From Holosporaceae bacterium (lineage in GTDB: Bacteria > Pseudomonadota > Alphaproteobacteria > UBA3830), in assembly GCA_031274295.1 (NCBI GenBank), contig JAISQI010000040.1, positions 1,190 to 65,189 of the forward strand: a stretch of DNA of 64,000 bases, in the 5' to 3' direction. Position 1 is the first letter of the stretch, and each line of letters starts with the position of its first letter. This document shows, in pieces, positions 1 to 45,502 of the stretch. The translations under genes were made by a program, and so were the position numbers. The notes beneath the pieces were generated by a model that searched no databases, was not told the origin of the DNA, and saw only the letters and a list, made by a program, of their open reading frames with translations.

Positions 1-1
1 A

Positions 2-241
2 TATGGTTTTATGATACTAACAGCTGAAATTATATATTATCCATTAGCACTATTTTTATATGAGCTAACTGCACAATATGCAGAATTTTATCATAAGCAA
101 TCTTCTTTTCTATCATTTTTATTTTTTGTTGGAGCTATTTTTATTCCTAATATAATCACAATAATACTGTTTTTAGGCGGAGCGAATCGCTTATATTATA
201 GGTTTATAACGCAAAAATGTTTGAAAGATAAAATTGCATAA
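2..241 (+). CDS. possible 3' end of a membrane-protein gene that begins left of the window
   Basis: Frame is open from base 2 to TAA 239-241. Hydrophobic stretch FLSFLFFVGAIFIPNIITIILFLGG. No family recognised. Confidence 0.25.
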   Translation, partial: YGFMILTAEIIYYPLALFLYELTAQYAEFYHKQSSFLSFLFFVGAIFIPNIITIILFLGGANRLYYRFITQKCLKDKIA

Positions 242-259
242 AAACTGGAAATTGTTCCA

Positions 260-590
260 TAAGAATATAAAGAGTATAGTCTTGGTCGCGTAAGAAATTT
301 TGTTGATATTTTAAGCGCGCGTCAATTTGCCTGTCTCAGGTTCTTCGATACATCCGCCCGACCAGAGAATTCTCCGCAACGTGAAAATGCGTGTTTGGAC
401 GAAAGTCCGCAATTGCCTCTGTTGCAGCCATTTCGAGCGGAGCTTCAAAAAATCTCCTGACCCCATTGTTTGGAGAAAACGGAGAGATTTAGAAGGCGAT
501 TTTACGCTTTGGAGAATGATGTTAGGCACTATGTTGTCTGTATATAAACGCACTGAAGCTGCAACAGCTTCTGATACAGCGATATTCTTA
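260..590. other. unassigned non-coding block, candidate structured RNA or decayed element
   Basis: Visibly more G+C than the neighbouring spacers. The ORFs on both strands have no recognisable domain. GNRA hairpin GGAC-GAAA-GTCC at 397-408. 7-bp hairpin GAAGCTG-CAA-CAGCTTC at 555-571. 419-428 is complementary to 558-567. 260-268 (TAAGAATAT) is complementary to 582-590 (ATATTCTTA). Confidence 0.25.
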
Positions 591-642
591 AGGACCTAGA
601 CATATAGAGCAATGCAAAACTCTCGTCTATTGCCATATAGTC

Positions 643-718
643 TGGTGGAGTCAAGGGGGGTCGAACCCCTGACCTCTACAATGCCATTGTAGCGCTCTAC
701 CAACTGAGCTATGACCCC
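643..718 (-). tRNA. tRNA-Ala (anticodon GGC)
   Basis: The reverse complement folds as a 76-nt cloverleaf: acceptor GGGGTCA/TGACTCC with G3:U70, anticodon loop ATGGCAT, T-loop TTCGACC, encoded CCA. Confidence 0.9.
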
Positions 719-912
719 ATTGCGGCAAAGGATGCGATAAATTGTCTTTTTTTGCAAGTGAAATTTGTAGTTTTACGTCGAGATCCTAGGTATAGCAATA
801 TAACACATAAATTATGCTTGATATTGAAATCGGTCGTATTGCATATGTCTTCTCTCGGGATTTGCGATTATTTTAGCAGAGATATCCGCAACGCAAAGAT
901 ACGACACAAAAA

Positions 913-989
913 TGGTAGCGGAGGAGGGATTTGAACCCCCGACACATGGATTATGATTCCACCGCTCTAACCAACTGAGCTACTCCGCC
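913..989 (-). tRNA. tRNA with CAU anticodon (elongator Met, or Ile2 if lysidine-modified)
   Basis: The reverse complement GGCGGAGTAGCTCAGTTGGTTAGAGC... folds as a 77-nt cloverleaf with anticodon loop ATCATAA, T-loop TTCAAAT and encoded CCA. It lacks the initiator features (no C1xA72, only two G:C pairs at the base of the anticodon stem). Confidence 0.85.
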
Positions 990-1074
990 GGGCAATTCCG
1001 GATACTACAACAGAAAAATTCAAAAGTGAATAATGAAAAAACTGTCTAGATGGTGTATAGTATAAAAACATATA

Positions 1075-1998
1075 ATGAAAGATTTTGATGTGTTTTTTCG
1101 AATAAAATTATTTGATCGTATGTTGGATATGTATTGCAAAAATCGCTCTCATACAGAACTTGCAAAACAATCTGTGGTATTCGGAGTTTTTATTTCCATT
1201 TTTCTGATTATACTAAAATTAGGGGCTTGGATAATCACGGATTCCATTTCCATGAGGGCCTCCATGACGGATTCTTTTTTGGATGCTCTCACTTCATTCT
1301 TAGCATATCACGCTCTGTTGTTTTCCTCCGTTTCTATAGATAAAGAGCATAATTTTGGTCATGAAAAAGTAGAAGGAATAATGGCTCTTTTCCAATGTTT
1401 ATTGGTTATTTATTCTGGAATTATGATATTCGTTGAGGCTCACGAGGCACTTTTAAACCCCAAATCTGTTAACAATACGGAAGTAGGAATTGCGGTCATG
1501 ATAATTTCCTGTGTCGCCGTGTATAAACTAGTATATTTTCAAAAGTATGTGGCTCTGAAAACGGATTCTGTGCTCGTCAAGGGGGATTCGCTGCATTATT
1601 TGTCCGATTTCCTGGTAAATATTTGCATCGTTTTATCTTTGCTAATTTCAAAATTTTTTATATATGCAGACGTTGTATGCGGTGTACTTGTTGGAGGATA
1701 CGTTTTGTATAGTGCGTTTTTAATTTTAAAAAGCGCTATTGTTGATTTGATGGATGGATCTCTTCCGCAAAATGCACAAGATCGTATTTTGAAAACAATA
1801 AAATCAGTTGATGGCGTAAAGAAAATTAAAATACTAAAAACAAGATCTGCTGGAATGAAAAAGTACATTGAATCCATAATCAAAGTCAGTTCCGGAACAT
1901 CATTTGTCGAGGCAGATAATATAACTCAAAAGGCAGAATCCAAGCTGCGCGGCATGTTTGAAAAAGTCGACGTAATCATAAAGGCAGAACCAGATTGA
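1075..1998 (+). CDS. cation diffusion facilitator (FieF/CzcD-like divalent metal efflux)
   Basis: 307 aa with six hydrophobic segments plus a cytoplasmic tail. FieF-like metal-site motifs TDSFLD, HNFGHEKVEG and HYLSD. Confidence 0.85.
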   Translation: MKDFDVFFRIKLFDRMLDMYCKNRSHTELAKQSVVFGVFISIFLIILKLGAWIITDSISMRASMTDSFLDALTSFLAYHALLFSSVSIDKEHNFGHEKVEGIMALFQCLLVIYSGIMIFVEAHEALLNPKSVNNTEVGIAVMIISCVAVYKLVYFQKYVALKTDSVLVKGDSLHYLSDFLVNICIVLSLLISKFFIYADVVCGVLVGGYVLYSAFLILKSAIVDLMDGSLPQNAQDRILKTIKSVDGVKKIKILKTRSAGMKKYIESIIKVSSGTSFVEADNITQKAESKLRGMFEKVDVIIKAEPD

Positions 1999-2050
1999 TC
2001 TCCCTAAATCTCTTGAAGAAAATATGGTTTTTATATAGATTGCTAGCGTT

Positions 2051-2127
2051 GCGGTCGTAGCTCAGCTGGATAGAGCACGAGATTCCTAATCTCGGGGTCA
2101 TGGGTTCAAATCCCTTCGATCGCACCA
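2051..2127 (+). tRNA. tRNA-Arg (anticodon CCU)
   Basis: 77-nt cloverleaf GCGGTCG...CGATCGC-A-CCA with anticodon loop TTCCTAA and T-loop TTCAAAT (one U:U mismatch in the T stem). Confidence 0.9.
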
Positions 2128-2155
2128 CCAATGTTGTGGCTATTCCATAAATCTT

Positions 2156-3505
2156 CTAGACTAGTTTGTTATACCATTTTAAGCTTTTATATCTTTTGTA
2201 CAAAAAAAATTGAGTCATAACCAACCAAGCCACCATGAATAGGTAAACGACAGGAACTGAATTCAAAGCCCCCATGTAATAAAGTATGGCTGTCGGCAAA
2301 GCCACTAACCCCCATAGAGTTATTTGGTAGACGATTACGGCATATCTAGTGTCTCCTCCAGCTATTAGAATGCCCCAGGTGGAAAATAGCAGCGTTTCCA
2401 GAACGATGGTCACAGTTACCCAATAAAATACGGTTTTTATGTCAGAATATAGCATAGAAATGTTGTCCGGCAGCATATCGAGTATGCTCAAAATCCATTC
2501 GGGGAACCCTATCAGAGGAATAGCGATTATGTAGCCGAAAAATAAGGAAATAGCGATAAAAACTTGACGAGTTTTTTCTATGGATTGTAAATCTCTTCTT
2601 CCTATCATATTTGAACAGATGGCGGCAGCTGCTTTGTTTATGCCCTCACCGACAAAGAGGAAAAATATGTATACATTCATACCGATATTATAAATTGTAG
2701 CAATATCTTTGGAAGAATAACTGATTGCGGTCTGTACCACATACCAAGCCAGCATCGATATGAAATTTCCAAACGATAAGGGAAGGCCTATTTTTATGCA
2801 GCTGCAGAATAATTTATAATCAAATTTGTTGTTTTTTAAGGTTTGGCAGATGGTTCTGTTTTTATTATTAAAAAATATCGCAGCCAAAATTACTATCTGT
2901 ACGAATTCAGCTATAACGGTAGCAATTGCAGCTCCCTGACATCCAGTTCCAGGAAAAACATTTTTAATTCCATATATTAGTAAGTAATCGAGTATGGCAT
3001 TGACAATGATTCCCGCTATTACGGAAAAAGTTATGATTTTTGTCTTTCCACGGCCTATAAAAAATGCGCAAAATGCCACTCTGAGCGAAGGAAGAGCTCC
3101 AAAATACATCAAAGTTTTCTGATACGCTACTCCTTCTTTCAGGTAATAATCGGGCAATGTGTGAAGATAATCGGAAAAATATGCAATTGGAATGAGAATA
3201 ACCGATGCAGCCAACGACATGTAAATCATCTGCCACACCGGAGCTGCTAGTTTGTCGTATTGTTTAGAACCATTATATTGGCCAACGAATATTTCCGCTG
3301 AATTCGAGATACCGATAAGCATCATGGTAAAAATCACGGTAAAATTACCAGCCATGGCCGCAGCATTCATCGAGTCCATTGAATATCCCGCCAACATTGC
3401 CCTATCTATGAGGAACATTAGGTTCGTCGACAAAACCGACAGCACCATGGGAACCGTTATACTCAAAATGCTTTTTAAAGAACTGTCAATTATTTTATGT
3501 TCCAC
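2156..3505 (-). CDS. MATE family multidrug/toxic compound efflux transporter
   Basis: 449 aa, about 12 TM segments, NorM/MatE-like N-terminus (LKSILSITVPMVLSVLSTNLMFLIDRAMLG). Confidence 0.8.
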   Translation of the reverse strand: MEHKIIDSSLKSILSITVPMVLSVLSTNLMFLIDRAMLAGYSMDSMNAAAMAGNFTVIFTMMLIGISNSAEIFVGQYNGSKQYDKLAAPVWQMIYMSLAASVILIPIAYFSDYLHTLPDYYLKEGVAYQKTLMYFGALPSLRVAFCAFFIGRGKTKIITFSVIAGIIVNAILDYLLIYGIKNVFPGTGCQGAAIATVIAEFVQIVILAAIFFNNKNRTICQTLKNNKFDYKLFCSCIKIGLPLSFGNFISMLAWYVVQTAISYSSKDIATIYNIGMNVYIFFLFVGEGINKAAAAICSNMIGRRDLQSIEKTRQVFIAISLFFGYIIAIPLIGFPEWILSILDMLPDNISMLYSDIKTVFYWVTVTIVLETLLFSTWGILIAGGDTRYAVIVYQITLWGLVALPTAILYYMGALNSVPVVYLFMVAWLVMTQFFLYKRYKSLKWYNKLV

Positions 3506-3523
3506 CGTACTTTTCCGTTTGTT

Positions 3524-3775
3524 TTATAAGACTGCTGCTGATATTTTACACGAAAATTTCTCAAATATCTCGCTGAGAATTCTTGCAATTCTCCGAAACC
3601 CGTTTCCTTCAAGGTACAACGTCAGGGCAAGACTTCTCTCTTTTGCGCTGTATTTTACGCGATTATCTGTCAAGCTTTGAGAACGATTGCAAGACTTGCA
3701 TCGCCATTTTTGTATGCCGTTTCTTACTCTGTCTTTTCTTAAATCATCACTGTTGCAATGCTTGCATACATCCAT
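3524..3775 (-). mobile_element. truncated IS1-family transposase N-terminus (InsA-like zinc finger + start of HTH), remnant only
   Basis: 83 aa: CKHCNSDDLRKDRVRNGIQKWRCKSCNRSQS (CxxC...CxxC), then LALTLYLEGNGFRRIARIL (HTH). No DDE (InsB-type) portion follows, and the ORF runs into the MATE upstream region. Confidence 0.55.
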
Positions 3776-4049
3776 ACCAACACCTCTTACAAATATATGC
3801 TGACATTATACTTAAACGTAATTAATTGTTAATCCCCAGGTATATTGACATTTAAAAAAATAAATATTATATATAAAATATGATTGGCAGAGGCGATTAA
3901 TGTTATTAGTTAATAAATATATGCTCGCTAACAGCAGTGCTATGCTGCTGAACAGCCAGTCTTCCTGCTATCGATACCGATATTAACAATCACGTTTAGT
4001 ATAATTTTAGCAATTTCTACTTTAATATTTTTATTTTTGGGTATCGATC

Positions 4050-5237
4050 ATGAGAAAACAACTTGGAGCAATATTTTTATTAGCCGGTACGGCAATAGGG
4101 TCTGGAATGATTTCGTTGCCAATTGTTTTGGTGAATTTCGGAATAATTGGAAGTTTGCTGTTAATGCTTTTTTTCTGTTGGGTAACGTATGTATCCGCTA
4201 TGATACGCTGCGAACTCAACATACATTCTCAGGCAGATTTTAGCCTGAAGGATGTTGGATTATTTTTTGGTGAACCAATATCGGCAAACATTGGGGACGC
4301 CTGTATCAAAATATTGTCTTTTGCGCTGCTGTCGGCGTATATCTTTGGAGGAACGTCCGTAATAAGATCATCAATACTTAATGGATACTCATTCACGAAT
4401 ATTGCGATTATATTTGCGGTAGCTATCTCTCTTATTTTTTTATTTTCGACGAATTTGATAATAAAAATAAATAACCATGCATTTATAATTCTGTTCTCCA
4501 TAATATTGGTGGGCATAGTTTGTTTAACAATGTGCTCCAGAACTGATAAGTTGCCAACTCATATGGGTGACATATGGCATCTAAAAGCGTGGACTACAGT
4601 TCTTCCGGTGGTATTTACATCATTCGGATTTCAAGCATCGTTACATTCGCTCACAAAATTTGTCGATAACGACAAAAAGGTAATCCAGAGAGCATGTTTG
4701 TTCGGAAGCATAATCCCCGTTATTATGTACAGTCTATGGGTTACGTGCGTACTAACAATAATCTTCAACTCTGATCCAGAAAGTTTTCATAGGATGCTAA
4801 TAAGTCCTCTAGAAGTTGGAGAGCTAATACGCGTTTTAAGCGTCATAACGAACATAACTGTGATTCAACATGCCGCATGGGTGGTCTCGTTCTTGGCGAT
4901 TATAACATCAATTATTGGTGTTGGATTATCTCTGAATGAGATTCTAGAAAAAGATCTGAAACATTTCGCTAGCAACGTTAAGTTCATACGCATTATATCA
5001 ACATTATTTATGATCGTCCCGGCGACGACGGTTGCGATATTTGTGCCCAACGCCTTTATACGAGTTCTAAATTTTGCGGGAATTATTCTAGCCATAATAG
5101 CCATCATTCTACCTGTTTTTCTATTTATGAGAATGTCCAAAGTACACTCCATAATTGATAAAGGGAAAGCATTGCTAATTCTCATGGTAGGAATTGCTAT
5201 AATTATTTTCGGAATACTAGACATATTTGGCGCATAA
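4050..5237 (+). CDS. aromatic amino acid permease (Mtr/TnaB/TyrP family)
   Basis: 395 aa, about 11 TM. N-terminal LGAIFLLAGTAIGSGMISLPI is typical of the TyrP/Mtr family. Confidence 0.7.
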   Translation: MRKQLGAIFLLAGTAIGSGMISLPIVLVNFGIIGSLLLMLFFCWVTYVSAMIRCELNIHSQADFSLKDVGLFFGEPISANIGDACIKILSFALLSAYIFGGTSVIRSSILNGYSFTNIAIIFAVAISLIFLFSTNLIIKINNHAFIILFSIILVGIVCLTMCSRTDKLPTHMGDIWHLKAWTTVLPVVFTSFGFQASLHSLTKFVDNDKKVIQRACLFGSIIPVIMYSLWVTCVLTIIFNSDPESFHRMLISPLEVGELIRVLSVITNITVIQHAAWVVSFLAIITSIIGVGLSLNEILEKDLKHFASNVKFIRIISTLFMIVPATTVAIFVPNAFIRVLNFAGIILAIIAIILPVFLFMRMSKVHSIIDKGKALLILMVGIAIIIFGILDIFGA

Positions 5238-5316
5238 TCCTTGGTGGAGAATACCCTCATTTTAGCATTTTAAGATAGCAAAATATCGTTTTTTCATTGC
5301 TGTACTACCGACATAC

Positions 5317-6006
5317 TCAGTCTTCTTCATCATCCAAAAAGATATCGTCAGCGTTTGTCGACATATCCCCATATTTTTGTAGATACATACTCTTTGTTGT
5401 CGAATATATGTCCATGGAATTATGAATTGTCGAATCAATTAAATTGGCATTTTCAGCACGATCGCTGATCGCCGTTAGAACGTATTTCGCCAGCATGAAT
5501 GGGAATCCAATAAAATATCCCACAGGATCGGCAAACCATGCAATAGGCTCGGCAATCGCATCTCGCGTTGAAGATGATCCTAAAATTGGTAAGACTAAAT
5601 AATCCCCCAGCGGCACATCGAATTTTTTCAAAGTACTTTGATGGGAAATTTCAGTCTTTTCCAATCCGATCTGTTCGCCTACATCGAAAAGTCCAATTAT
5701 TCCCAATGTCGAATTTATTACAAAACGAAAAAGAGAATTTGCTGCATGTTCTGCATCGCAAGTCACGATATAATTTATACTGTAAAATGGTTCTTTTAGA
5801 TTCGCGAGAAAATCAGATATAGATTCTCTTGCAACATCTGGAACGACGTCCCTATATGCCAAAGCAGTCGGTTTTAAGATGTTTTTATCGAGAGCTAGAT
5901 TGAATTCAAGCATATCTTTATTAAACTCTCTGTGTGGATCGGGATTTTCTGGGGTTGCTGAACATGCCGCCAGCAAAAATAGAATATATAAAAAAGGCTT
6001 TCCCAT
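5317..6006 (-). CDS. mlaA: MlaA/VacJ outer-membrane lipoprotein
   Basis: Lipobox LLAAC, then FNKDMLEFNLALDKNILKPTALAYRDVVPDVARESISDFLANLKEP, matching the VacJ core. Confidence 0.85.
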   Translation of the reverse strand: MGKPFLYILFLLAACSATPENPDPHREFNKDMLEFNLALDKNILKPTALAYRDVVPDVARESISDFLANLKEPFYSINYIVTCDAEHAANSLFRFVINSTLGIIGLFDVGEQIGLEKTEISHQSTLKKFDVPLGDYLVLPILGSSSTRDAIAEPIAWFADPVGYFIGFPFMLAKYVLTAISDRAENANLIDSTIHNSMDIYSTTKSMYLQKYGDMSTNADDIFLDDEED

Positions 6007-6123: not shown

Positions 6124-7404
6124 ATGGACATACTAACAAAGTGCTTACCAAAAGGGGAATATTATATGTATGATTTTTATGATTCCATTTCCTATTTTAC
6201 AAAACCTTCCAGGAAATCCGCTCAGATTTTAAGATCTATCCTAAGATCAAATCCGCACGCTATGAATTCATGCATTGGGCGCCTTGCCGAAGGATTGTCC
6301 GATATGTACGAGCGGTCGACCAGGCGTGTACACAAGCCAGAATTTAATATAGATCAAGTAACTATAAATGGAGAAGAGGTAAACGTTTATCAAACAACAG
6401 TGTTGAAAAAGCCTTTCTGCGACTTGATTCGTTTTACGAAAGAAAATCAACAGCATGAACCCAAAGTGCTGATAATTGCGCCAATTTCCGGACATTTCGC
6501 CACATTGCTGAAGGATACGGTTAAAAGAATGGTCCCGAAGCATGATGTCTACATTACGGACTGGAAAAGTGTTCGCGACGTGCCCTTGTCGGCTGGCAGC
6601 TTCACATTGGATAATTATCTTTCATATTTGATCGATTTTATGCATAAAATAGGACCGAATACTCACGTTATGGCCGTTTGTCAGCCAGCAGTTCAGGTAA
6701 TGGCTCTGGGAGCAATAATGGACGAGGCCGATGATCCATGTATGCCTGCGTCCCTTATTCCAATGGGAGGACCAATTGATCCGAGAGTGAAAAAGACCCA
6801 AGTCAACGAGCTTGCTGAAAGTCATCCATTATCGTGGTTTGAGAAAAATTTCTTAACATATGTTCCAAGTGGATATATCGGAGAAGGACGTCGTGTTTAC
6901 CCCGGATTCGTTCAGCTAACGGCGTTTATAAATATGAACCCGGATGCACATTACAGAGCTCATGTCCAATATCTTGAAGATAAAATCCTCAATAACAAAG
7001 CTGGAATGGAAAAGCATACCACGTTCTACGACGAGTATTTATCTGTTTTAGACATGGATGATATTTACTATCTAGAGACGATAGAAAAAATATTCCAAAC
7101 CTACGAATTGCCACGCAATACTATGAAGTACAAGGGGCAAACCATTAATCTTAAAAATATTAGACGTTGTGCTCTGTTGACTCTTGAGGGAGAAAAGGAC
7201 GACATATCAGCTCCAGGACAGTCATTTGCAGCCCACAACCTTTGTAAAAACCTTCCGGCAGACATGCATGGGCATTACTTACAGCCAGGAGTAGGCCATT
7301 ATGGTGTTTTTTCCGGCAGCAAGTGGCGCTCAAGCGTAGCTCCTCAAATAGAAGAATTTATACAAAAATTCGATCGGGAAATTGGTACTTATTACAAGAA
7401 GTAA
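6124..7404 (+). CDS. phaZ: intracellular polyhydroxyalkanoate (PHB) depolymerase
   Basis: Long colinear matches to the intracellular PhaZ family: VLIIAPISGHFATLLKDTV, DVYITDW, AVCQPAVQV, GGPIDPR, VYPGFVQLTAFINMN, FYDEYLSVLDM, LLTLEGEKDDISAPGQ, GVGHYGVFSGSKW. The true start may be ATG 6166. Confidence 0.8.
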   Translation: MDILTKCLPKGEYYMYDFYDSISYFTKPSRKSAQILRSILRSNPHAMNSCIGRLAEGLSDMYERSTRRVHKPEFNIDQVTINGEEVNVYQTTVLKKPFCDLIRFTKENQQHEPKVLIIAPISGHFATLLKDTVKRMVPKHDVYITDWKSVRDVPLSAGSFTLDNYLSYLIDFMHKIGPNTHVMAVCQPAVQVMALGAIMDEADDPCMPASLIPMGGPIDPRVKKTQVNELAESHPLSWFEKNFLTYVPSGYIGEGRRVYPGFVQLTAFINMNPDAHYRAHVQYLEDKILNNKAGMEKHTTFYDEYLSVLDMDDIYYLETIEKIFQTYELPRNTMKYKGQTINLKNIRRCALLTLEGEKDDISAPGQSFAAHNLCKNLPADMHGHYLQPGVGHYGVFSGSKWRSSVAPQIEEFIQKFDREIGTYYKK

Positions 7405-14159: not shown

Positions 14160-15110
14160 TCATAGTTGTCTCTGTGTTTGCGTGTCAGAAACTTGGAGTG
14201 GCATTATGATTCCTTCATTCCTAAGATAACCTTCAAGTAAATTAGGAATATTCCATTCTTCATCCAATTCCATAAAATTGCAATCAACTACTACCGGATC
14301 AAGCCCGTATCTTTGCTGAAAAGTTTGCGCTCCCTTACTTATTAAAATGTTTCCCAGACTCGCAAGAAAATAGTGTTGTATATTTTTCCATTGCAGTCCA
14401 AAATTTTCCTCTCTAAGAGTAGCTATCGACCAAAGGATTTTATCCAGCAAAGTTCCTATAAAACTTACTCTTTCCCAACCACCATATAGTAAAAATTCGT
14501 TTGGATTTTCCCCGTGAGCAATTAGTATTTGTATAGGTTGCTCCAAAGATTGGATATAGTGATCTAGTTCCTGGCGACTTTGTATATCTGGAGGACAGAA
14601 TAACAATCCTTCGAACAAACTCCTATGCGGTGGTCGCTCACCTGCTGCATTCAATATACCTTCTAATGAACCGAATGCACGCTTGGACATACAAGACTCG
14701 ATTAAAGTATCCCAACTTACTGGAGCACCGGATTCTCTCCAGAATCGTAGAGTTTCCGGATCTTCAATGTTTATGGCACTTATTAAAGTTCCTGCAAATG
14801 CACCCATGGTCTCCACAAAGTTTCCTGCGCTAATACCGTTTAGCCTCTCTAGTTTTTCATTTATCTCATGTTTTTTTTGTTCCATGAATTCTTGAAACGT
14901 TAATCCTTCTTCCTCTAGGATTCGTTGTTCCATTGATCCTTGAATCGGCAATTTTTCTGCTCTTTCTAGGATAAGCTCTTTTATTCCTTCTAAATGATTG
15001 CGAACCTGATTGGTGACAAAAACTTGACTTTCCGTTAAGTCTGCAAACATGCCGCTTGCAGTTTTACTAAAAAACACCACTATGACCAATAATAATCGAT
15101 TTATTTTCAT
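14160..15110 (-). CDS. hypothetical secreted protein (orphan)
   Basis: 316 aa with an N-terminal signal-like MKINRLLLVIVVFFSKTASG. No motif recognised. Confidence 0.5.
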   Translation of the reverse strand: MKINRLLLVIVVFFSKTASGMFADLTESQVFVTNQVRNHLEGIKELILERAEKLPIQGSMEQRILEEEGLTFQEFMEQKKHEINEKLERLNGISAGNFVETMGAFAGTLISAINIEDPETLRFWRESGAPVSWDTLIESCMSKRAFGSLEGILNAAGERPPHRSLFEGLLFCPPDIQSRQELDHYIQSLEQPIQILIAHGENPNEFLLYGGWERVSFIGTLLDKILWSIATLREENFGLQWKNIQHYFLASLGNILISKGAQTFQQRYGLDPVVVDCNFMELDEEWNIPNLLEGYLRNEGIIMPLQVSDTQTQRQL

Positions 15111-15427: not shown

Positions 15428-16051
15428 CTATTTAGATTGAGATGCATCTATTCGGTTTTTCGTTACTGAAACCGCTTCGCCCATTTTGTATGCTTCTTTT
15501 ATTTTGTCGGGCTGGTTTCTAATCTCACCTGCTTCATGAACACCTAGACCACAAATAACACCCGCCAATTTTGCACTTTCTGGACACTTTACCCAAACAC
15601 CACTAAAATGCCTTATCCAGTCTTCAACCTTTTTAATTACGAGGTCAATAAATTCGTTGCTCTGGCTTGACGAAGCCGTTAACAAATACACATCACGAAA
15701 TCTATGTGTTTGTTCAAGTTTCAACTTCCATGGGAATAGCGGATATGTACGATCTAACAATGTTTGCATTTGCCCACTTACTCCACCAAAATACACAGGA
15801 GCAGCAAAAACAATTACATCGGTATCGTGTATTTTCCTTACGATTTCACTTGCACCGTCTTGAAAAACGCATTTTTGTGTATTTTGACAAACATCGCAAC
15901 CTAAACAAAAATTAATTTCCTTATTTCGCAGAGAAATCTTTTCGACTTCATGCCCACTACTCGTAGCGCCTTTTACAAACTCATCAGCAAGTATGTCCGT
16001 ATTGGAATTATTACGCAAACTTGTGGATATTACCAAAACCTTTTTGCTCAT
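15428..16051 (-). CDS. flavodoxin-fold NAD(P)H-dependent FMN reductase / iron-sulfur flavoprotein (Isf-like)
   Basis: VLVISTSLRNNSNT flavodoxin-like start and compact Cys motif CLGCDVCQNTQKC (CX2CX2CX5C). Last gene of the por operon. Confidence 0.7.
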   Translation of the reverse strand: MSKKVLVISTSLRNNSNTDILADEFVKGATSSGHEVEKISLRNKEINFCLGCDVCQNTQKCVFQDGASEIVRKIHDTDVIVFAAPVYFGGVSGQMQTLLDRTYPLFPWKLKLEQTHRFRDVYLLTASSSQSNEFIDLVIKKVEDWIRHFSGVWVKCPESAKLAGVICGLGVHEAGEIRNQPDKIKEAYKMGEAVSVTKNRIDASQSK

Positions 16052-16103
16052 AGCACTCTCTAATAGTTTTCTATTTAAGAATTATATATGAATCAGGTTA
16101 CAT

Positions 16104-17741
16104 TTATACTTTGCTATCATCGGAGATCATTTCTATTGCTCCGCAGGGACACTCGGCAGCACACATTCCGCATCCTTTACAATAGTCGTAATTAATCTCA
16201 AGCGAGCCGTCCGAGTGCTTAATAATGGCATTGTCGGGGCAATAGGCGTAGCAATTATCACAATGGAAACAGTTGCCGCAGGAAAAACAGCGAGCAGATT
16301 CTACGATTATTTTCTGATCTGAATAGGAAACGTCCCTCTCATCAAATGAAAGATCCGGCATACGCGAAACGGTAATTCTATTATCTTTGGGGAAATAAGC
16401 TGTGTTTAATTTTTTAAAATTAATAACCTTATTTTTAATATTAGGAACAAATTCAACGCCTCTAAGATAAGCATCTATACACTTTGCTGCCTTTTTTGCG
16501 TGTCCTATGGCATTGGTCACAGTCCGCTTTCCCAAAATAGCATCTCCTCCTGCGAAAATTCCCTTTTCTCCGGTCATCATATTCTTATCAACCTTGATCG
16601 TTCCCTTTTCGGAAATCTCTATGCTTTTAACTTCCTGTAGAACACTTATATCCACGGATTGACCAATGGCGAAAATTACGCTATCGGCATAAATGGTTTC
16701 GGTTTCTCCGGACTTTGATAAAACATCTAATTTCTCGTCGTAATTCATTTTATCAACCAATATGTTATCGCTATTAATGGAATTAATTGTACGTAGGCAA
16801 AGAATTTCTATCCCTTCCGTTAGAGCTTCTTTTATTTCTACTTCGTGGGCGGGCATGTTATTAATTCCGCGCCTATAGATGATTTTTACATTTTTCGCGC
16901 CCAGCCGTAAAGCCGTTCTTGCCGCGTCAATGGCGGTATTCCCTCCCCCATATATAATGACTTTTTTCTCCAGATATGAAGGTCGATTTTTACCATCTTC
17001 AAGTTCTTTAAATAGATCTATCGCGTTGACAATATCTGGACTTTCCTTTGTTTCTAAATCAACCGGTGTAGCCAGACATGCGCCAATAGATATATACGTC
17101 GCATCGAAACCTTTAATTTCATTTAAAATGTTAGAAACCCTTTTATTGCAGATAATTTGAACCCCTAAATCTTCTATTCTCTTTATTTCAGCGTTTATAA
17201 TACTGTTCGACAATCTATATCTTGGGATGCCATAACGCATCATTCCGCCAGGCTTTATATGATTTTCAAAAATTGTAACGTCATGTCCCAACATTTTTAA
17301 AAAATAAGCGGCAGATAATCCGCTTGGACCAGCTCCAACAATGAGGACTTTCTTTCCGCTATTCGGCGATACATTTTCAAATTTCCAATGATTAGCAATG
17401 GCAATATCTCCAATAGACTTTTCGATTAAATTAATATTGACGGCTCCATCGAATTGCTCTCTATTGCAAGCCTTTTCACAAGTATAATAGCAGACTCGTC
17501 CCATTATTGCTGGAAATGGATTGCTTTGTGTCATGACTTTCCACGCTTCATGAAATTGCTCTTCCTTGGCCAAGGACAACCAAAGTTGTATATTCTCTCC
17601 AGCAGGGCATGTAGCATTGCAAGGCGGTAACTTATTTGCAAAATTGGGACACATCGTCCTCCAAGACCCAGTTTTATTACTTAGACTCGTAGAAGCTCCA
17701 AGAACAGTAGCAAAGGGTTTATTCATTAATAATTCCTCCAT
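16104..17741 (-). CDS. GltD-like NAD(P)H:FAD oxidoreductase fused to a C-terminal 2x[4Fe-4S] ferredoxin (PorD-like) domain
   Basis: N-terminal TGSWR, then NPFPAIMGRVCYYTCEKAC (GltD-type Fe-S region). Dinucleotide folds KVLIVGAGPSGLSAAYFL and VIIYGGGNTAIDAA. C-terminal CFSCGNCFHCDNCYAYCP and CKGCGMCAAECP. Overlaps porB by 23 nt. Confidence 0.75.
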   Translation of the reverse strand: MEELLMNKPFATVLGASTSLSNKTGSWRTMCPNFANKLPPCNATCPAGENIQLWLSLAKEEQFHEAWKVMTQSNPFPAIMGRVCYYTCEKACNREQFDGAVNINLIEKSIGDIAIANHWKFENVSPNSGKKVLIVGAGPSGLSAAYFLKMLGHDVTIFENHIKPGGMMRYGIPRYRLSNSIINAEIKRIEDLGVQIICNKRVSNILNEIKGFDATYISIGACLATPVDLETKESPDIVNAIDLFKELEDGKNRPSYLEKKVIIYGGGNTAIDAARTALRLGAKNVKIIYRRGINNMPAHEVEIKEALTEGIEILCLRTINSINSDNILVDKMNYDEKLDVLSKSGETETIYADSVIFAIGQSVDISVLQEVKSIEISEKGTIKVDKNMMTGEKGIFAGGDAILGKRTVTNAIGHAKKAAKCIDAYLRGVEFVPNIKNKVINFKKLNTAYFPKDNRITVSRMPDLSFDERDVSYSDQKIIVESARCFSCGNCFHCDNCYAYCPDNAIIKHSDGSLEINYDYCKGCGMCAAECPCGAIEMISDDSKV

Positions 17742-18687
17742 TTAAACCGTACTTTTCAATGTTGGCATTTGCGATGCTTTGTATAACCTCAACCGTTTCG
17801 GATGGTCCATTTTTACCAAACAAATGGGCGAATCGTTTCTGTAATATTAGATAATCTTGGACCGGAACTAAATTATCAATTATGGTTGAACTGACTATTT
17901 TAGCGTTTTCCGCCTCGAATAATGGAAACAATCCACACTGTATAGCAAGCCTTGCGACTTTTATGGTATCCGATGTTGGATAGCCCCATCCCAATGGACA
18001 CGGCACATGAACGTGCAGGTATTTAGATCCTCTTATGTTTATTGCTTTTGATACTTTTTCCTCAAGATCTGGAATGTTAGCAATACTCGCGGTAGCTACG
18101 TACGGAATTCCATGGGCCATGGCGATCTTGGGAATATCTTTTCCAGTCTGCGGGTCGTTTCCCAGATAACTCCTATGGGGAAGAGTAGTTGCCGTTCTAG
18201 CCAATGGAGGTGTAGCTCCGGATCTTTGTACTCCGGTATTCATATATGCTTGATTGTCGTAGCATATATATAAAACGTCATCGTTGCGTTCGAACATTCC
18301 AGATAGACATCCCATTCCTATGTCGAAGGTCGATCCGTCCCCTCCTTGAGCGATAACGCGAATATCTTCTCTATTTTGGCGATGAAGAGCTGCCGCCACT
18401 CCAGTGGCTACGGCTGGAGCATTTCCAAACAATGAATGTAACCATGGTATGCCCCATGAATTTTCAGGAAAAGCACAGGAAAAAACCTCCAAACAACCGG
18501 TGGCATTAACCACCATAATCTTACCGTTAGTAGCACGATAGGCAGCATCAACTGCACATCTGGCTCCCAGCGCTTCTCCGCACCCTTGACAGGCTCTATG
18601 ACCGCTTGTTAGCGTATTTGGTCTATTGTGATCTGATTGAACGGTTGCTTTCCCCGTTGATTTATTTCCGAGCGTTGCGCTTGACAT
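17719..18687 (-). CDS. porB: 2-oxoacid (pyruvate-type):ferredoxin oxidoreductase beta subunit, TPP-binding
   Basis: SGHRACQGCGE and TPP motif GGDGSTFDIGMGCLSGMFERNDDVLYICYDNQAYMNTG. Start overlaps the porA stop (TAATG, 18685-18689). Confidence 0.85.
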   Translation of the reverse strand: MSSATLGNKSTGKATVQSDHNRPNTLTSGHRACQGCGEALGARCAVDAAYRATNGKIMVVNATGCLEVFSCAFPENSWGIPWLHSLFGNAPAVATGVAAALHRQNREDIRVIAQGGDGSTFDIGMGCLSGMFERNDDVLYICYDNQAYMNTGVQRSGATPPLARTATTLPHRSYLGNDPQTGKDIPKIAMAHGIPYVATASIANIPDLEEKVSKAINIRGSKYLHVHVPCPLGWGYPTSDTIKVARLAIQCGLFPLFEAENAKIVSSTIIDNLVPVQDYLILQKRFAHLFGKNGPSETVEVIQSIANANIEKYGLNGGIINE

Positions 18688-19883
18688 TATTTTCCTCCTT
18701 CGTGGCCATGTAACTTTATAGGCTTATATTCTTGGGTGATAATATCTTCTTTTAGCCCTAAAAACGTGATCTCCTCTATATTTTTTTTCAAAAAATACTC
18801 CTTTAACATTGGTTTTGTGATATTTCTACCTCCCAAACCAGCCACAACAGAAAATACCTCAATATCGGTCTGTTTAAATGCCAATTCAATTTCTTGGAAC
18901 AAAATACCACCTATTCCAACGGCAAATGCTTTCTCAAGAACTATAATTCTTTTGGTATTTTTTAAAGAATTCACTATGGCATCAGTGGGAAATGGTCTGT
19001 AACTGATAATCGAAAGAAGTCCGATTTTTTCTCCAATAGAATTTAGCTCATCTATTAAATCTTTTATAGTTCCGGCCACAGATCCCATGGTTATGACGAC
19101 AGTTTCAGCATTTTTAATATTATATTCCCGCACAAGTCCGCCCGAATCTCTTTTGAATTTTTGTTTAAATGCGTCTCCAATGCCTTCGATTATTTTAAGA
19201 GATTCGATTCGTCTTTTGTGGGCTAGATAACGAACTTCCATGAAATATTCCGGCGACACCATAGTTCCAATCGCAATTGGACTGTCAATGCTCAAGCTTA
19301 TATGAGGACTATAGGGTGGAAGAAATTCATCGACTTCTTTTTGGGAAGGAATATCAACTTGATCATAGGCATGTGTCAAAATAAATCCGTCGACACAAAC
19401 CATAACTGGGCATTTTATTGTCTCCGCAATTTTGAACGCCTGTATATGAAGATCTAACGCTTCCTGATTGGTCTCAGCAAATAACATGATCCAACCAGAA
19501 TCCCTCGCCGACATAGCGTCCGAGTGATCGTTCCATATATTAATTGGAGCTCCTACGGCTCTATTACCCAAGGTCATAACAATTGGCAACTCAAGACCAG
19601 AAACGTTATAAACGGCCTCCAGCATGTAAAGTAATCCTTGACTGGACGTGGCAGTATAGCTACGAACTCCTGTAGCTTGTGACCCAATGGCAACACTCAG
19701 AGCAGCCATTTCTGATTCTACATTTATAAATTCGCAGTTTAATAATTCATTGCTCCTTACAAGCTCGCCTATTCCTTCAACTATATGGGTTTGAGGAGTA
19801 ATAGGATAGGCACAAATAACTCCAGGCCGACACAACGCAACGGCCTTAGCAATCGACTGAGATCCTTCCAATTGATAAAGCAT
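18687..19883 (-). CDS. porA: 2-oxoacid (pyruvate-type):ferredoxin oxidoreductase alpha subunit
   Basis: 398 aa: GSQSIAKAVALCRPGVICAYPITPQTHIVE, SEMAALSVAIGSQATGVRSYTATSSQGL. AGGAGG Shine-Dalgarno just upstream. The size fits a stand-alone alpha without a fused gamma domain. Confidence 0.85.
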   Translation of the reverse strand: MLYQLEGSQSIAKAVALCRPGVICAYPITPQTHIVEGIGELVRSNELLNCEFINVESEMAALSVAIGSQATGVRSYTATSSQGLLYMLEAVYNVSGLELPIVMTLGNRAVGAPINIWNDHSDAMSARDSGWIMLFAETNQEALDLHIQAFKIAETIKCPVMVCVDGFILTHAYDQVDIPSQKEVDEFLPPYSPHISLSIDSPIAIGTMVSPEYFMEVRYLAHKRRIESLKIIEGIGDAFKQKFKRDSGGLVREYNIKNAETVVITMGSVAGTIKDLIDELNSIGEKIGLLSIISYRPFPTDAIVNSLKNTKRIIVLEKAFAVGIGGILFQEIELAFKQTDIEVFSVVAGLGGRNITKPMLKEYFLKKNIEEITFLGLKEDIITQEYKPIKLHGHEGGK

Positions 19884-19968
19884 TTTTCCTCCTATGATTT
19901 TTTGAACATTAAATTAAGGCGAATACCTGAAATTACATTGAATTTCATCAGACTGTCAATCTATTCCC

Positions 19969-20009
19969 CGGTATCTTTGCATGAAACTATTTATTAATGC
20001 AAGATACCG
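19969..20009. promoter_or_regulatory. 13/14-bp inverted repeat in the divergent por / acidic-protein spacer (candidate operator or hairpin)
   Basis: CGGTATCTTTGCAT-N14-ATGCAAGATACCG, 86-126 nt upstream of the porA start codon. Confidence 0.3.
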
Positions 20010-20185
20010 TCTTCCTGTTTATCCTAAAATAGATCGCGCCGCAACAATGGATTTGTTGCAATTTGTATCAATTTAGCGAAATCAATGAAAATTTCGAAGA
20101 GAGCAGATAAAAATACGTCGCCGGGGGAAATTTAACTAAAATTCAATGTTTTCATGAGACAATTTCATTAGTAGTTGGATGAATT

Positions 20186-22186
20186 ATGAGACTATTGTGC
20201 ATTTACATACTGCCCTTACTGTGCTGTTTTATCGAAACCTGCGGAAAAATTTTCGCGGAGGATGCGGTTAGTATAGTTAATATTGAACCTTTAAAGCCCC
20301 CCCTAGAGTCAAGTACGAAAAGCGATCCATCCAATGCCAATATAGAAAAAGAAAAGACCACGGAAAATAAATCAGATTCTGAAAAATCGCAAAATGCTTT
20401 GGAATCAACCTCAAAAGATGAAAAATCAAACTCAACCGCAGAAAAAGAAAAGATCGCTGGTGCTTCAACCTCTGAAACATCGCAAAATGTCACACAACCC
20501 CCTCAGAAAGATAAATTAATTGATTTTAGCATAACAGGATTAGAAAAATTTTCATTTCTCATGGAAACGCTGAATCCTATGTTGATTTTCAACATTGAAA
20601 TAGGAGAACTTTTCGAAGAAGAAGAAATTGAGGAGGAGGAAGAAGAAGAAGAAGAAGAAGAAGAAATCGAGGAAGAAAATTCTGATCAGCAAGATTCGCA
20701 TGATGAAGATGAAGAAAAAGAGGAAGAAGACTCTAATCAGCAGAGTCTATATGATGAAGAAGATGGAGAGGAAATTCCGGAAAACCAAATGGATCTCCTA
20801 GAAGAAACTGATGGTCTGGATGATCCAGATGACGTAGATGATAATTATGATCGGGATGGTGATCGAGACGATCAAGGCTACGAAGACGATGATAATGACT
20901 ATAGAGATCGAGACGATCGAGGCTACGAAGATGATGACGCCTACGATCAAGATGACAATTATGATCGGGACGATCGAGAAGACTATCGAAATAATGGCTA
21001 TGACGATCAGGATAATCAAGACTCCGGAGATGAAGAAAGAGACGACAGAGCATCCTCCAGAGATCCTCAAAACCGCCGTTCGAATAAAAAAGGAACAGAT
21101 GAAATAGAAGGCAATCGTCTGGTAGTAGAAGAAACAATAGACTATCTCAAAACTCTCGGAGTTATCGATGAATCTAAATTAGACGGTCTGGTTTTTGGCG
21201 ATACAATGCACGGAATCTGCCTGTTGTGCCGGAAGGTTGGTCTTGTACATAAGATAGGCGGACAATTCCAATATGGAATATGCACCAATTGCATGCAACA
21301 AAAAACATATCAATTGGAAAAAGGAGATACATCGGGAGAATCTCGTGGCCAGTTTAGCGGCAATAATGTCTCACTTGATGAATATAACAGTCCGAGAAAT
21401 GATAGCAGAAAAGAACATGCTGGAAGAGAACGCAATTTGAGATCCGACGATGACGGCGGCAATGGCTATTACGAAAGAGGATCTCCAAGAAACCGAAGGG
21501 ACGAAAACCAAGGAGAGAACGGATTGCTGGGCATGTTAACGAGCGGTGCAGGTGAAGCCATAAAGGGGTTATTCAATAAAGAAGATACTGGGGCAACAAT
21601 TTCCATGGCTCCGGCTCCTGTTCCAATAGCGGTGGCGCCTGTGGCAAATGCTGTTCCTGCGGTTCAACCAGTCGCTCAGGCCCCTCAGTACACTCAGGCT
21701 ATACAGACAGTTCCAACTGCCCCATTAACAAAAACGGATAATATCATGAATAAAGTAGGGCAAGGCGTAGACATTGCATCTAAAGTAGCAAATTTGGGAA
21801 CTTCCATTGCTAGCGCAATTCCACCAGGTCTGTTAAATAAAACTCCAACGGCGCCGACAACCAATGCGGTAGCTGGAAATCCAATCACCACAACGACGCC
21901 ATCTCCTACTCTGGGCGGAAATCCGATCGCTGCGGTAGCAAATACAGCGACATCCAGCGTATCAGATAAAACTGCACAGGCCCAAAGCAACGCGGCTGGT
22001 ATAAAAATAAAACTAGATTTAGCGATGAAGGAATTAGAAGGACAAAAACAAAAGATTAGTAGTGGGGGGTTAACAGGTAAGACTTTAAAGAAAGCACAAT
22101 TAGAAATGGAAAAAACACAAAATGAGGTAAATTCGCTTCAAACTGAATATAACCAAGCGATGGAAGAAGTTAATAAGCAGCAATAA
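20186..22186 (+). CDS. secreted hyper-acidic repeat protein with CxxC...CxxC knuckle, Ala/Pro/Thr-rich region and C-terminal coiled coil (orphan)
   Basis: Signal-like MRLLCIYILPLLCCFIETCG. Glu run and DRDD(Q/R)GYEDDD repeats. CLLC...CTNC at 21218-21292. APAPVPIAVAPVANAVPAVQPVAQAP. Heptad-like KKAQLEMEKTQNEVNSLQTEYNQAMEEV. Confidence 0.6.
   Translation: MRLLCIYILPLLCCFIETCGKIFAEDAVSIVNIEPLKPPLESSTKSDPSNANIEKEKTTENKSDSEKSQNALESTSKDEKSNSTAEKEKIAGASTSETSQNVTQPPQKDKLIDFSITGLEKFSFLMETLNPMLIFNIEIGELFEEEEIEEEEEEEEEEEEIEEENSDQQDSHDEDEEKEEEDSNQQSLYDEEDGEEIPENQMDLLEETDGLDDPDDVDDNYDRDGDRDDQGYEDDDNDYRDRDDRGYEDDDAYDQDDNYDRDDREDYRNNGYDDQDNQDSGDEERDDRASSRDPQNRRSNKKGTDEIEGNRLVVEETIDYLKTLGVIDESKLDGLVFGDTMHGICLLCRKVGLVHKIGGQFQYGICTNCMQQKTYQLEKGDTSGESRGQFSGNNVSLDEYNSPRNDSRKEHAGRERNLRSDDDGGNGYYERGSPRNRRDENQGENGLLGMLTSGAGEAIKGLFNKEDTGATISMAPAPVPIAVAPVANAVPAVQPVAQAPQYTQAIQTVPTAPLTKTDNIMNKVGQGVDIASKVANLGTSIASAIPPGLLNKTPTAPTTNAVAGNPITTTTPSPTLGGNPIAAVANTATSSVSDKTAQAQSNAAGIKIKLDLAMKELEGQKQKISSGGLTGKTLKKAQLEMEKTQNEVNSLQTEYNQAMEEVNKQQ
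20630..20665 (+). repeat. trinucleotide repeat (GAG)3(GAA)9 encoding 12 consecutive Glu
   Basis: Counted directly: GAG x3 at 20630-20638 and GAA x9 at 20639-20665, in frame within the 20186-22186 ORF. Confidence 0.95.
20861..20950 (+). repeat. imperfect 45-bp tandem duplication (15-aa unit DRDD[Q/R]GYEDDD...)
   Basis: GATCGAGACGATC[A/G]AGGCTACGAAGA[C/T]GATGA begins at 20861 and again at 20906. Weaker related copies flank it. Confidence 0.8.
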
Positions 22187-44517: not shown

Positions 44518-45240
44518 ATGATAGATCCACTGCATCAATTTACCATATCTCCGATTTTGAAAATTGATATCGGCGGAGTCGATTTATCGTTTACAAATTC
44601 ATCATTATCTGTGCTAGTTACTCTTGTGGCAGTATGTGCAATTCTTTCCATATTCATAGGGAACAAGAAACTTATTCCTGATAGGATGCAGGCCTCCATA
44701 GAGATGCTGTACGAAGCTATAGCGGATATGATAGATACAAATATCGGAAAAAGTGGACAGCATTATTTCCCCTTTGTGTTTTCAGTATTTTTGTTTGTAT
44801 TATTCGGAAACTTAGTTGGCATAATTCCGTACATGTTTACTTTTACAAGTCACATAATCGCGACATTTACCATTGCGATAATTGTATTTATCTTCATAAC
44901 CATACTGGGCGTCGCTTTGCATGGTCTCAATTTTTTGAGCTTATTCGCACCGAGCGGAGTTCCCAAATTTTTGCTTCCATTACTAATTCCAATTGAAATG
45001 ATCTCCTACCTTTCCAAACCAATTAGTCTTTCCATCCGACTTTTTGCAAACATTATGGCAGGCCACACAGTGATGAAAGTTTTTGCCGGATTTGCCGCTA
45101 TGCTGGGAATCCTAGGAATTATTCCCGTTGCAATAAACATTGTTTTAACAGGATTTGAAATATTTATGGCCATTTTACAAGCGTATATATTCACAATGCT
45201 CACTTGTGTATACCTAAATGATACTGTACACTTACACTAG
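44518..45240 (+). CDS. atpB: F0F1 ATP synthase subunit a
   Basis: PISLSIRLFANIMAGH (essential Arg) and position ahead of subunit c. Confidence 0.9.
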   Translation: MIDPLHQFTISPILKIDIGGVDLSFTNSSLSVLVTLVAVCAILSIFIGNKKLIPDRMQASIEMLYEAIADMIDTNIGKSGQHYFPFVFSVFLFVLFGNLVGIIPYMFTFTSHIIATFTIAIIVFIFITILGVALHGLNFLSLFAPSGVPKFLLPLLIPIEMISYLSKPISLSIRLFANIMAGHTVMKVFAGFAAMLGILGIIPVAINIVLTGFEIFMAILQAYIFTMLTCVYLNDTVHLH

Positions 45241-45260
45241 TCATTATTGATGAGGTTGTT

Positions 45261-45485
45261 ATGTCGACAGAAGCGGTTCGTTTCATTAGTGCGGCCATCG
45301 CGATTTTTGCGTTGTACGGTATTGGTACCAGTATGGGAAACTATTTTTCTAACTGGACTAGTGCAGTTGCGCGAAATCCAGAAGCAAATGAAAAAATCAA
45401 AACATTCGGTATGATAGGATTCGTAGCGATTGAATTTATTGCTCTTATGACTTTTGTGGTTGCCGTATTAATTTTGTTTAAATAA
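45261..45485 (+). CDS. atpE: F0F1 ATP synthase subunit c
   Basis: 74 aa hairpin, ARNPEA loop, carboxylate in FVAIEFIAL. Confidence 0.9.
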   Translation: MSTEAVRFISAAIAIFALYGIGTSMGNYFSNWTSAVARNPEANEKIKTFGMIGFVAIEFIALMTFVVAVLILFK

Positions 45486-45502
45486 AGAAAATTGGTGATG
45501 AG

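Follow-up and report, generated by a model that had tools for sequence, protein, structure and literature searches.

A Por-type 2-oxoacid oxidoreductase with a GltD-like subunit that carries the delta-type ferredoxin domain: a probable pyruvate:NADP+ oxidoreductase in a Holosporaceae genome whose por operon lacks porG

We analyzed the por operon in a 64-kb stretch of contig JAISQI010000040.1 (hereafter the window), which belongs to a metagenome-assembled genome (MAG) named 'Holosporaceae bacterium'. The operon encodes the alpha (PorA) and beta (PorB) subunits of a 2-oxoacid oxidoreductase and a third protein, called here the fusion, in which a GltD-like NAD(P)H-FAD module continues into a domain of the type that makes up the small delta subunit of Por enzymes. 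There is no gene for the gamma subunit in the window. We propose that these genes, together with a gamma subunit, specify a gamma/alpha/beta/(epsilon-delta) pyruvate:NADP+ oxidoreductase, and we give this reading a probability of about 0.65. The electron acceptor of such an enzyme would be NAD(P)+, probably NADP+, and not free ferredoxin. An earlier reading of the same DNA, made from the sequence alone (the original prediction), had put forward that 2-oxoacid oxidation is coupled directly to NAD(P)+. This is still the best reading because the fusion gene lies in one operon with porA and porB at all related loci and no such operon has a separate gene for delta.

Results

The fusion joins a GltD-type flavin module to a PorD-type domain

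The fusion is a full-length member of the family NF009410/PRK12771. It scores 646.8 bits against an NCBIfam cutoff of 516, and its residues 17-541 align to profile positions 26-565 of 566. In Pfam it is composed of Fer4_20, Pyr_redox_2 and a C-terminal dicluster domain (Table 1). The view that the GltD-type module bears a PorD-type 2x[4Fe-4S] domain was already part of the original prediction and is well supported by profile and structure databases: the C-terminus matches PorD_Arch (4.3e-21), exceeds the cutoff of TIGR02179 (PorD_KorD; 60.8 against 60.05) and matches the delta chain of a pyruvate:ferredoxin oxidoreductase (PFOR; PDB 9bt4_G, 2.4e-14). Fifteen cysteines are invariant in the whole protein, and the ten in its C-terminal part are all among the invariant positions. 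Orthologues carry the label '2-oxoacid:acceptor oxidoreductase delta subunit' in IMG.

The best PDB sequence matches of the N-terminal ~430 residues are NfnB/GltD-type modules, and a conserved Y289-R290-R291 follows the second Rossmann motif. From these sequence signatures, the conserved cysteines and Y-R-R, the GltD-type module is predicted to bind NAD(P)H as well as FAD and a pair of [4Fe-4S] clusters. Because only five cysteines are invariant in the N-terminal iron-sulfur (Fe-S) domain, one of the two GltD clusters is probably completed by C485 and C488, which lie in an invariant RCxxCG motif directly ahead of the first ferredoxin motif. In canonical GltD and DPD, it is the N-terminal Fe-S domain that opens with the RCxxC pair. 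The RCxxCG of the fusion aligns with 'RCLECG' behind the GltD module in StnC (8oh5_C) and NfnABC (9bov_A), in both of which the pair likewise follows the flavin domain and precedes a ferredoxin-like domain. With the pair in this position, the ligands of one GltD cluster would be permuted throughout the fusion family, and the GltD and delta clusters would come to lie back to back.

The AlphaFold2 model of the fusion forms one compact unit (pLDDT 85, pTM 0.84), with values of 76-88 for the C-terminal domain. In a structure search (Foldseek probability 1.00), StnC/NfnABC matched over the whole length with a TMq of 0.78, compared with 0.67 for GltD or NfnB alone.

The operon order is conserved and the fusion replaces a separate delta subunit

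We used tblastn to collect the gene neighborhoods of about 75 related loci, comprising the loci of two homologues and those recovered in a scan of species-representative genomes and in a metagenome scan. The metagenome scan started from the gamma protein P0129 described below and yielded relatives at 53-62%. The order porG(PF01558)-porA-porB-fusion, with the genes abutting or overlapping, was present on contigs of sufficient length, in 39 of the 41 porA-porB-fusion loci found in genome and contig searches and in all 35 complete environmental loci. The original prediction had proposed a survey of how often the fusion accompanies a PorAB pair lacking gamma; what we found instead is that porG lies upstream of nearly all such pairs. 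The ancestral operon would have been porG-porA-porB-fusion, with gamma encoded directly upstream of porA. None of these loci contains a separate delta gene, which means that the role of delta must fall to the fused domain.

The operon was found in about 30 MAGs of gut Holosporaceae and other Alphaproteobacteria (from termite guts and rumens), in several Actinomycetes (Nanopelagicales, Micrococcales, Gaiellaceae) and on environmental contigs. The fusion had been presented as a novelty. It belongs to an existing curated family, and a 121-aa C-terminal segment spanning its junction matched 862 cluster representatives (50% identity clusters; E≤1e-10), many of them proteins of 530-580 aa with the match at the C-terminus. 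From the conserved gene order and the number of junction matches, the fusion is a common and conserved fourth subunit of a Por-type enzyme that is not peculiar to the window genome. The window copy is a routine member of this family, and its split operon is its only peculiarity.

The loci from Actinomycetes (L037-L041 and L043) carry porG-porA-porB-fusion. Carriers such as the Nanopelagicales are regarded as aerobes of fresh water and soil, in which case the term 'anaerobe-type', which had been applied to the window enzyme, is questionable for the family.

PorA and PorB resemble the subunits of a four-subunit PFOR

The assignment of PorA and PorB in the original prediction was correct, and all motifs that it quoted for the four proteins are present. 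PorA contains POR_N (1.7e-68) and PFOR_II (7.7e-28), keeps the YPITP motif (residues 26-30) that is found in 86 homologues, and has the alpha chain of a four-subunit PFOR as its best PDB match (9bt4_B, 1e-102). PorB contains TPP_enzyme_C (1.8e-20) and matches 9bt4_C (1.7e-85). Its cysteines C33, C36, C65 and C230 and the GDG(115-117)...N motif of the thiamine pyrophosphate (TPP) site are invariant in 75 homologues.

The best profile matches were to PorA_Arch for PorA (1.9e-129) and to PRK11865 PorB for PorB (1.4e-97). Since the pyruvate models and 9bt4 outrank the Vor, oxalate and Pad enzymes for both subunits, the substrate is most likely pyruvate.

A candidate gamma subunit is encoded on another contig

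We did not find a gamma gene in the 64-kb window, either by tblastn with two gamma proteins (best E 1.4) or by a search for PF01558 in the window ORFs scanned. The intergenic region upstream of porA (19884-20185) gave no tblastn signal, which rules out a decayed gamma remnant at that place. The earlier statement that gamma is missing is thus accurate for the operon and its surroundings. For the organism it very probably does not hold.

A search with the gamma protein of a relative identified MDR1982231 (P0129), a PF01558 protein of 180 aa that is full length and is encoded on a 20,909-bp contig of a Holosporaceae MAG. The window proteins are MDR1982687-90 (locus tags LBQ08_02745/02750; contig of 77,963 bp), and the accession of this gamma is 457 below that of the window fusion, MDR1982688. 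In six other MAGs the accessions of gamma and fusion differ by exactly 3, which indicates that NCBI numbering follows gene order. Judged by its tag, LBQ08_02745, porB is approximately locus 549, and 458 proteins fit before it as long as the non-coding and pseudogene loci in that stretch number no more than 90. The closest relatives of P0129 are the gammas of loci L012 (84.7%) and L046 (80.8%), and these two loci also come closest to the window in the fusion and rank among its nearest relatives in PorA. There was no fusion protein from the 20,909-bp contig among the best 120 fusion homologues, so that P0129 looks like an orphan gamma complementing an operon that lacks one. From the accession numbers and the matching relatives, it is very probable that gamma has been relocated to another contig of the same MAG and has not been lost. 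The general lesson is that, in a fragmented MAG, a subunit gene missing from a locus is weak evidence that the subunit is missing from the enzyme.

The place where relatives carry porG is occupied in the window by a 666-aa ORF (20186-22186, plus strand) that is divergent from porA and has no Pfam match. It has a hydrophobic, cysteine-containing N-terminal leader, a very long acidic low-complexity region rich in D and E, and a C-terminal half rich in Thr, Ala and Pro. The product could be an effector that is secreted or exposed at the cell surface.

A proposed path of electrons from pyruvate to NADP+

In the enzyme that we propose, pyruvate and coenzyme A (CoA) would react at the TPP site of PorAB, and electrons would leave through the [4Fe-4S] cluster of PorB. 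They would then cross the two clusters of the C-terminal delta-type domain of the fusion, pass through the two GltD-type clusters (one of them probably completed by the relocated C485/C488) and reach FAD, which would reduce NADP+. The CoA-binding gamma subunit (domain III) would still be needed and would be supplied in trans by MDR1982231. We infer the direction of electron flow from standard values: the potential of pyruvate/acetyl-CoA is far more negative than that of NADP+/NADPH. Such a connection has a precedent in DPD, where four clusters are lined up as a linear wire across a GltD-like module and an 8Fe-ferredoxin-like domain (PMC8097209). The GltD and delta clusters of the fusion would be arranged in the same way.

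Several points weigh against this reading. Neither PorA nor PorB reaches its NCBIfam equivalog cutoff (432 bits against 550 for PorA_Arch, and 326.6 against 405 for PRK11865 PorB), and for this reason pyruvate is not assured as the substrate. The preference for NADP+ is read from a single feature, the conserved Y-R-R, interpreted in terms of GltD/NfnB-type sites. The closest solved structures of the flavin module of the fusion are of electron-bifurcating enzymes, and a more complex stoichiometry is possible. The AlphaFold2 model carries no cofactor geometry. The assignment of P0129 to the window MAG is indirect, and bins can be chimeric. Finally, the literature that we searched contained no biochemical study of any member of the family.

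Alternative explanations

The alternative that survives best concerns the substrate and is compatible with the rest of the model. There is a modest chance that the enzyme oxidizes another 2-oxoacid, such as 2-oxoisovalerate, 2-oxoglutarate, an aryl-glyoxylate or oxalate. In addition to the scores below the equivalog cutoffs, PorA and PorB match the models for Vor, PadG/PadI and oxalate oxidoreductase at 1e-52 to 1e-90. These matches are clearly surpassed by those to pyruvate-type models and to the PFOR 9bt4, and the retention of the operon in reduced endosymbiont genomes makes a role in central metabolism more plausible.

It is somewhat less likely that the complex does something other than simply reduce NADP+. 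The FAD of the fusion could work as in NfnB or StnC, as a bifurcating or confurcating center that joins the low-potential electrons of the Por enzyme with a further donor or acceptor; or the reaction could run backwards, with NADPH driving the synthesis of pyruvate. In both sequence and structure, the fusion is best matched by the NADPH-binding subunits of the bifurcating enzymes StnABC/NfnABC and NfnI, a flavoprotein with a cysteine cluster motif is encoded immediately downstream in the window genome, and a PFOR-Nfn-like complex has been postulated for propionibacteria (PMC7650540). However, the roughly 75 operons contain no NfnA- or StnAB-like partner; only four genes, porG, porA, porB and that of the fusion, make up the conserved set, and the flavoprotein gene does not belong to it. 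Reductive carboxylation with NADPH alone is strongly uphill by standard potentials, which argues against the reverse direction. In addition, the same module works without bifurcation in GltS and DPD (PMC8097209).

It seems very unlikely that the enzyme truly works without gamma, with domain III dispensable or replaced in this lineage. The 64 kb around the operon without a PF01558 gene and the indirect assignment of P0129 would fit this explanation, as would a second Holosporaceae MAG in which porG is likewise missing upstream of porA (L016; JAISMS010000012.1, Im510_bin49; 1-5884). Against it, the closest relatives of the window (L012, L035, L046 and L045) all keep porG abutting porA, and an intact orphan gamma with a matching phylogenetic position is found 457 accessions away. 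To our knowledge, domain III is kept in all structurally characterized 2-oxoacid:ferredoxin oxidoreductases (OFORs), even in the oxalate oxidoreductase, which does not depend on CoA. The window and L016 are not sisters in a neighbor-joining tree built from PorA, PorB and the fusion, which rules out a shared origin of these two loci without porG, and the absence of porG upstream of porA in L016 appears to go back to an event independent of that in the window. In L016, a BspA-type leucine-rich repeat protein, Lnt and two dCTP-deaminase-like genes are found in place of porG.

Least likely of all is a decaying remnant inactivated by the split from porG: the split is unusual (2 of ~75 loci), but none of the three ORFs is truncated or has lost an invariant ligand, the ribosome-binding site and translational coupling are intact, and the orphan gamma is full length and 85% identical to that of a relative.

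The operon appears to be native to gut Holosporaceae

The original prediction regarded the operon as foreign to this genome, and our analyses contradict that view. In the neighbor-joining tree, the sequences from gut Holosporaceae and other gut Alphaproteobacteria form one clade, apart from the environmental and actinomycete sequences, and the window is nested within this clade beside loci L012 and L046. The GC content of the por genes (0.39-0.44) and their GC content at third codon positions (0.33-0.35) lie inside the range of the housekeeping genes. The order fusion-alaS-rluD is common to the window and locus L027. A foreign or recently transferred operon is ruled out by these three observations, and within the gut Holosporaceae clade the operon is inherited vertically, though the ancestor of the clade may have acquired it laterally.

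The neighbors of the operon are housekeeping genes (alaS, an rluD-like gene, map, rne, gltX, cysS, glyA and mutS). The genes for F-type ATP synthase, which had been described as adjacent, encode the F0 subunits a, b and b' at 44518-46416, about 25 kb away.

Comparison with known enzymes

Four-subunit PorABGD enzymes of the archaeal, Thermotoga and Helicobacter type (PDB 9bt4) share with the window system the alpha, beta and gamma architecture and the delta-type 2x[4Fe-4S] domain. They differ in that their delta is a free subunit of ~85 aa, whereas in the window system delta forms the C-terminus of an NAD(P)H-FAD-Fe/S protein of 540 aa, for which a pyridine nucleotide is the predicted acceptor, and in that porG is unlinked in the window MAG. 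GltD-like modules occur in the beta subunit of GltS and in NfnB, NfnI-L, DPD, StnC and NfnABC. In contrast to all of these, the partner of the module in the window is a TPP-dependent 2-oxoacid oxidoreductase, no NfnA/StnAB-type branch is encoded, and electrons are predicted to flow towards NADP+ and not from NADPH.

OFORs with an additional FAD subunit are known, and the NADP+-dependent 2-oxoglutarate oxidoreductase of Azoarcus is one of them. Phenylglyoxylate:NAD+ oxidoreductase (PadEFGHI) of Azoarcus evansii is another (Hirsch et al. 1998, as cited in PMC5109826); going by that citation, it has an OFOR core and an extra FAD subunit that reduces the pyridine nucleotide directly, and it differs from the window system in its separate subunits and its substrate. 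The window PorA and PorB reach 259.3 and 176.3 bits with the PadG and PadI equivalogs, which have cutoffs of 700, and the PadH model is not among the best 25 NCBIfam matches of the fusion.

The pyruvate:NADP+ oxidoreductase (PNO) of eukaryotes such as Euglena and Cryptosporidium couples the same chemistry to NADP+ through a fused flavoprotein. It is built from different parts, namely a single-chain NifJ-type enzyme and an FMN/FAD module resembling cytochrome P450 reductase, as opposed to a multi-subunit Por-type enzyme and a GltD-type FAD/Fe-S module in the window. The single-chain model TIGR02176 gave 157.5 bits against a cutoff of 911, and Pfam detected no flavodoxin/FNR-type domain of the P450 reductase kind in the four window proteins.

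The fusion family seems to be catalogued but uncharacterized: NF009410/PRK12771 is named, has no assigned function, and includes the window fusion as a plain member. We found no paper on a GltD::delta fusion or on a Por enzyme in Holosporaceae in the literature searched. A 2021 review of GltD-like enzymes covers only GltS, DPD, Nfn and AegA (PMC8097209), and a 2025 review of Holosporales never mentions pyruvate or ferredoxin. More tentatively than for the window enzyme itself, we suggest that porG-porA-porB-(GltD::delta) could be a widespread modular bacterial pyruvate:NADP+ oxidoreductase with a four-cluster wire from TPP to FAD, its gamma being unlinked in the window MAG. If this is true, acetyl-CoA is made from pyruvate with direct formation of NADPH in many bacteria, among them abundant Actinomycetes and the Holosporaceae of guts, which are likely to live as symbionts of anaerobic protists. 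Where others have pyruvate dehydrogenase or a PFOR linked to ferredoxin, they would use an enzyme of the oxygen-sensitive TPP/Fe-S type. The system would then be a prokaryotic counterpart to eukaryotic PNO, and metabolic reconstructions would change for genes now labeled 'ferredoxin oxidoreductase' and 'glutamate synthase small subunit'. The remaining interest lies with the enzyme family and not with the window locus.

The downstream flavoprotein is not conserved with the por genes

The fourth gene of the cluster encodes a protein of the FMN_red family (Pfam, 2.6e-22). The original prediction had described it as an Isf-like flavoprotein belonging to the system. The first part of this description is sound as far as the family and a compact cysteine motif are concerned: the translation reads C49-x2-C52-x2-C55-x5-C61, as in the compact CX2CX2CX4-7C motif near residue 50 of Isf. 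None of its 22 PDB matches at E≤10 is named an iron-sulfur flavoprotein; the best is 7d38 'Cd1' (1e-12), followed by a WrbA-like protein. The second part does not stand. A homologue was not found at any other por locus, and the gene stands alone in two other genomes examined (P0253 and P0263), which rules it out as a component of the por system. The gap between the fusion and flavoprotein genes is 52 nt with no terminator-like site in it, and the two may be co-transcribed.

In L027, alaS directly follows the fusion gene, and in the window the flavoprotein gene and a 316-aa ORF lie between the two. The nearest relatives of the flavoprotein are a protein of Ca. Anoxychlamydiales (81%), proteins on short unassigned contigs, and proteins of Clostridia at 72% and then ~48%; the loci compared with the window were L136 (6001-6633) and L138 (6001-6570). 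No further named Holosporaceae homologue turned up. The gene is a lineage-specific insert, probably acquired laterally, and the high identity between the alphaproteobacterial and chlamydial proteins suggests a recent lateral exchange. We take both Holosporaceae and Ca. Anoxychlamydiales to be likely symbionts of anaerobic protists, and some of the short unassigned contigs could come from hosts.

The 316-aa ORF (14160-15110, minus strand) has a signal-peptide-like N-terminus and no Pfam or NCBIfam match. It has a strong promoter-like site of its own, TTGACA-17-TACAAT, at 15177-15149.

Gene layout and starts

The ORF list confirmed the four co-oriented minus-strand genes with the coordinates and sizes of the earlier reading (Table 1). 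The sequence TAATG at 18685-18689 combines the stop codon of porA with the start codon of porB, and AGGAGG is present 5' of porA, both as first described. The third sign of tight coupling, an overlap between porB and the fusion gene, is real and probably shorter than the 23 nt originally given. NCBI gives the fusion 540 aa (MDR1982688), at variance with IMG and with the ORF list, in which the protein has 545 aa and begins with the ATG at 17741. A GGAGG precedes the second ATG (17726) by 8 nt, and it is from this ATG onward that the homologues all align. Given the spacing, the NCBI call and the alignments, the fusion probably starts at 17726, which would give an overlap of 8 nt with the end of porB, reading ATGAATAA.

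Table 1. Features of the por operon and domains of the fusion (window coordinates; residues are those of the encoded proteins)
Feature	Position	Strand	Details
porA, alpha subunit, 398 aa	18687..19883	-	Domains I and II; YPITP motif
porB, beta subunit, 322 aa	17719..18687	-	TPP site and proximal [4Fe-4S]
GltD-like::delta fusion ('epsilon-delta' subunit), ORF of 545 aa	16104..17741	-	Likely start 17726, giving 540 aa
GltD-type N-terminal Fe-S domain, fusion residues 38-118	17388..17630	-	Fer4_20 7e-17; invariant C41, C45, C84, C88, C92
FAD and NAD(P)H dinucleotide-binding domains, fusion residues 130-415	16497..17354	-	Pyr_redox_2 1.1e-30; VGAGPSGL, GGGNTAIDAA
R-C485-xx-C488-G and PorD-type 2x[4Fe-4S] domain, fusion residues 484-541	16119..16292	-	C491/494/497/501, C521/524/527/531
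FMN_red-family flavoprotein, 207 aa	15428..16051	-	CX2CX2CX5C motif, C49-C61
AGGAGG, ribosome-binding site of porA	19888..19893	-	Read in the sequence; 5' of the porA ATG

A scan for promoter-like sites gave 21, compared to 20.4 expected from shuffling, and is uninformative; the corresponding numbers for terminator-like sites were 9 and 4.7. Scans for tRNAs and Rfam families returned nothing relevant. Farther from the operon, an ORF at 6124-7404 (plus strand) contains a PHB_depo_C domain (2.6e-83) in a genome that looks reduced and host-associated.

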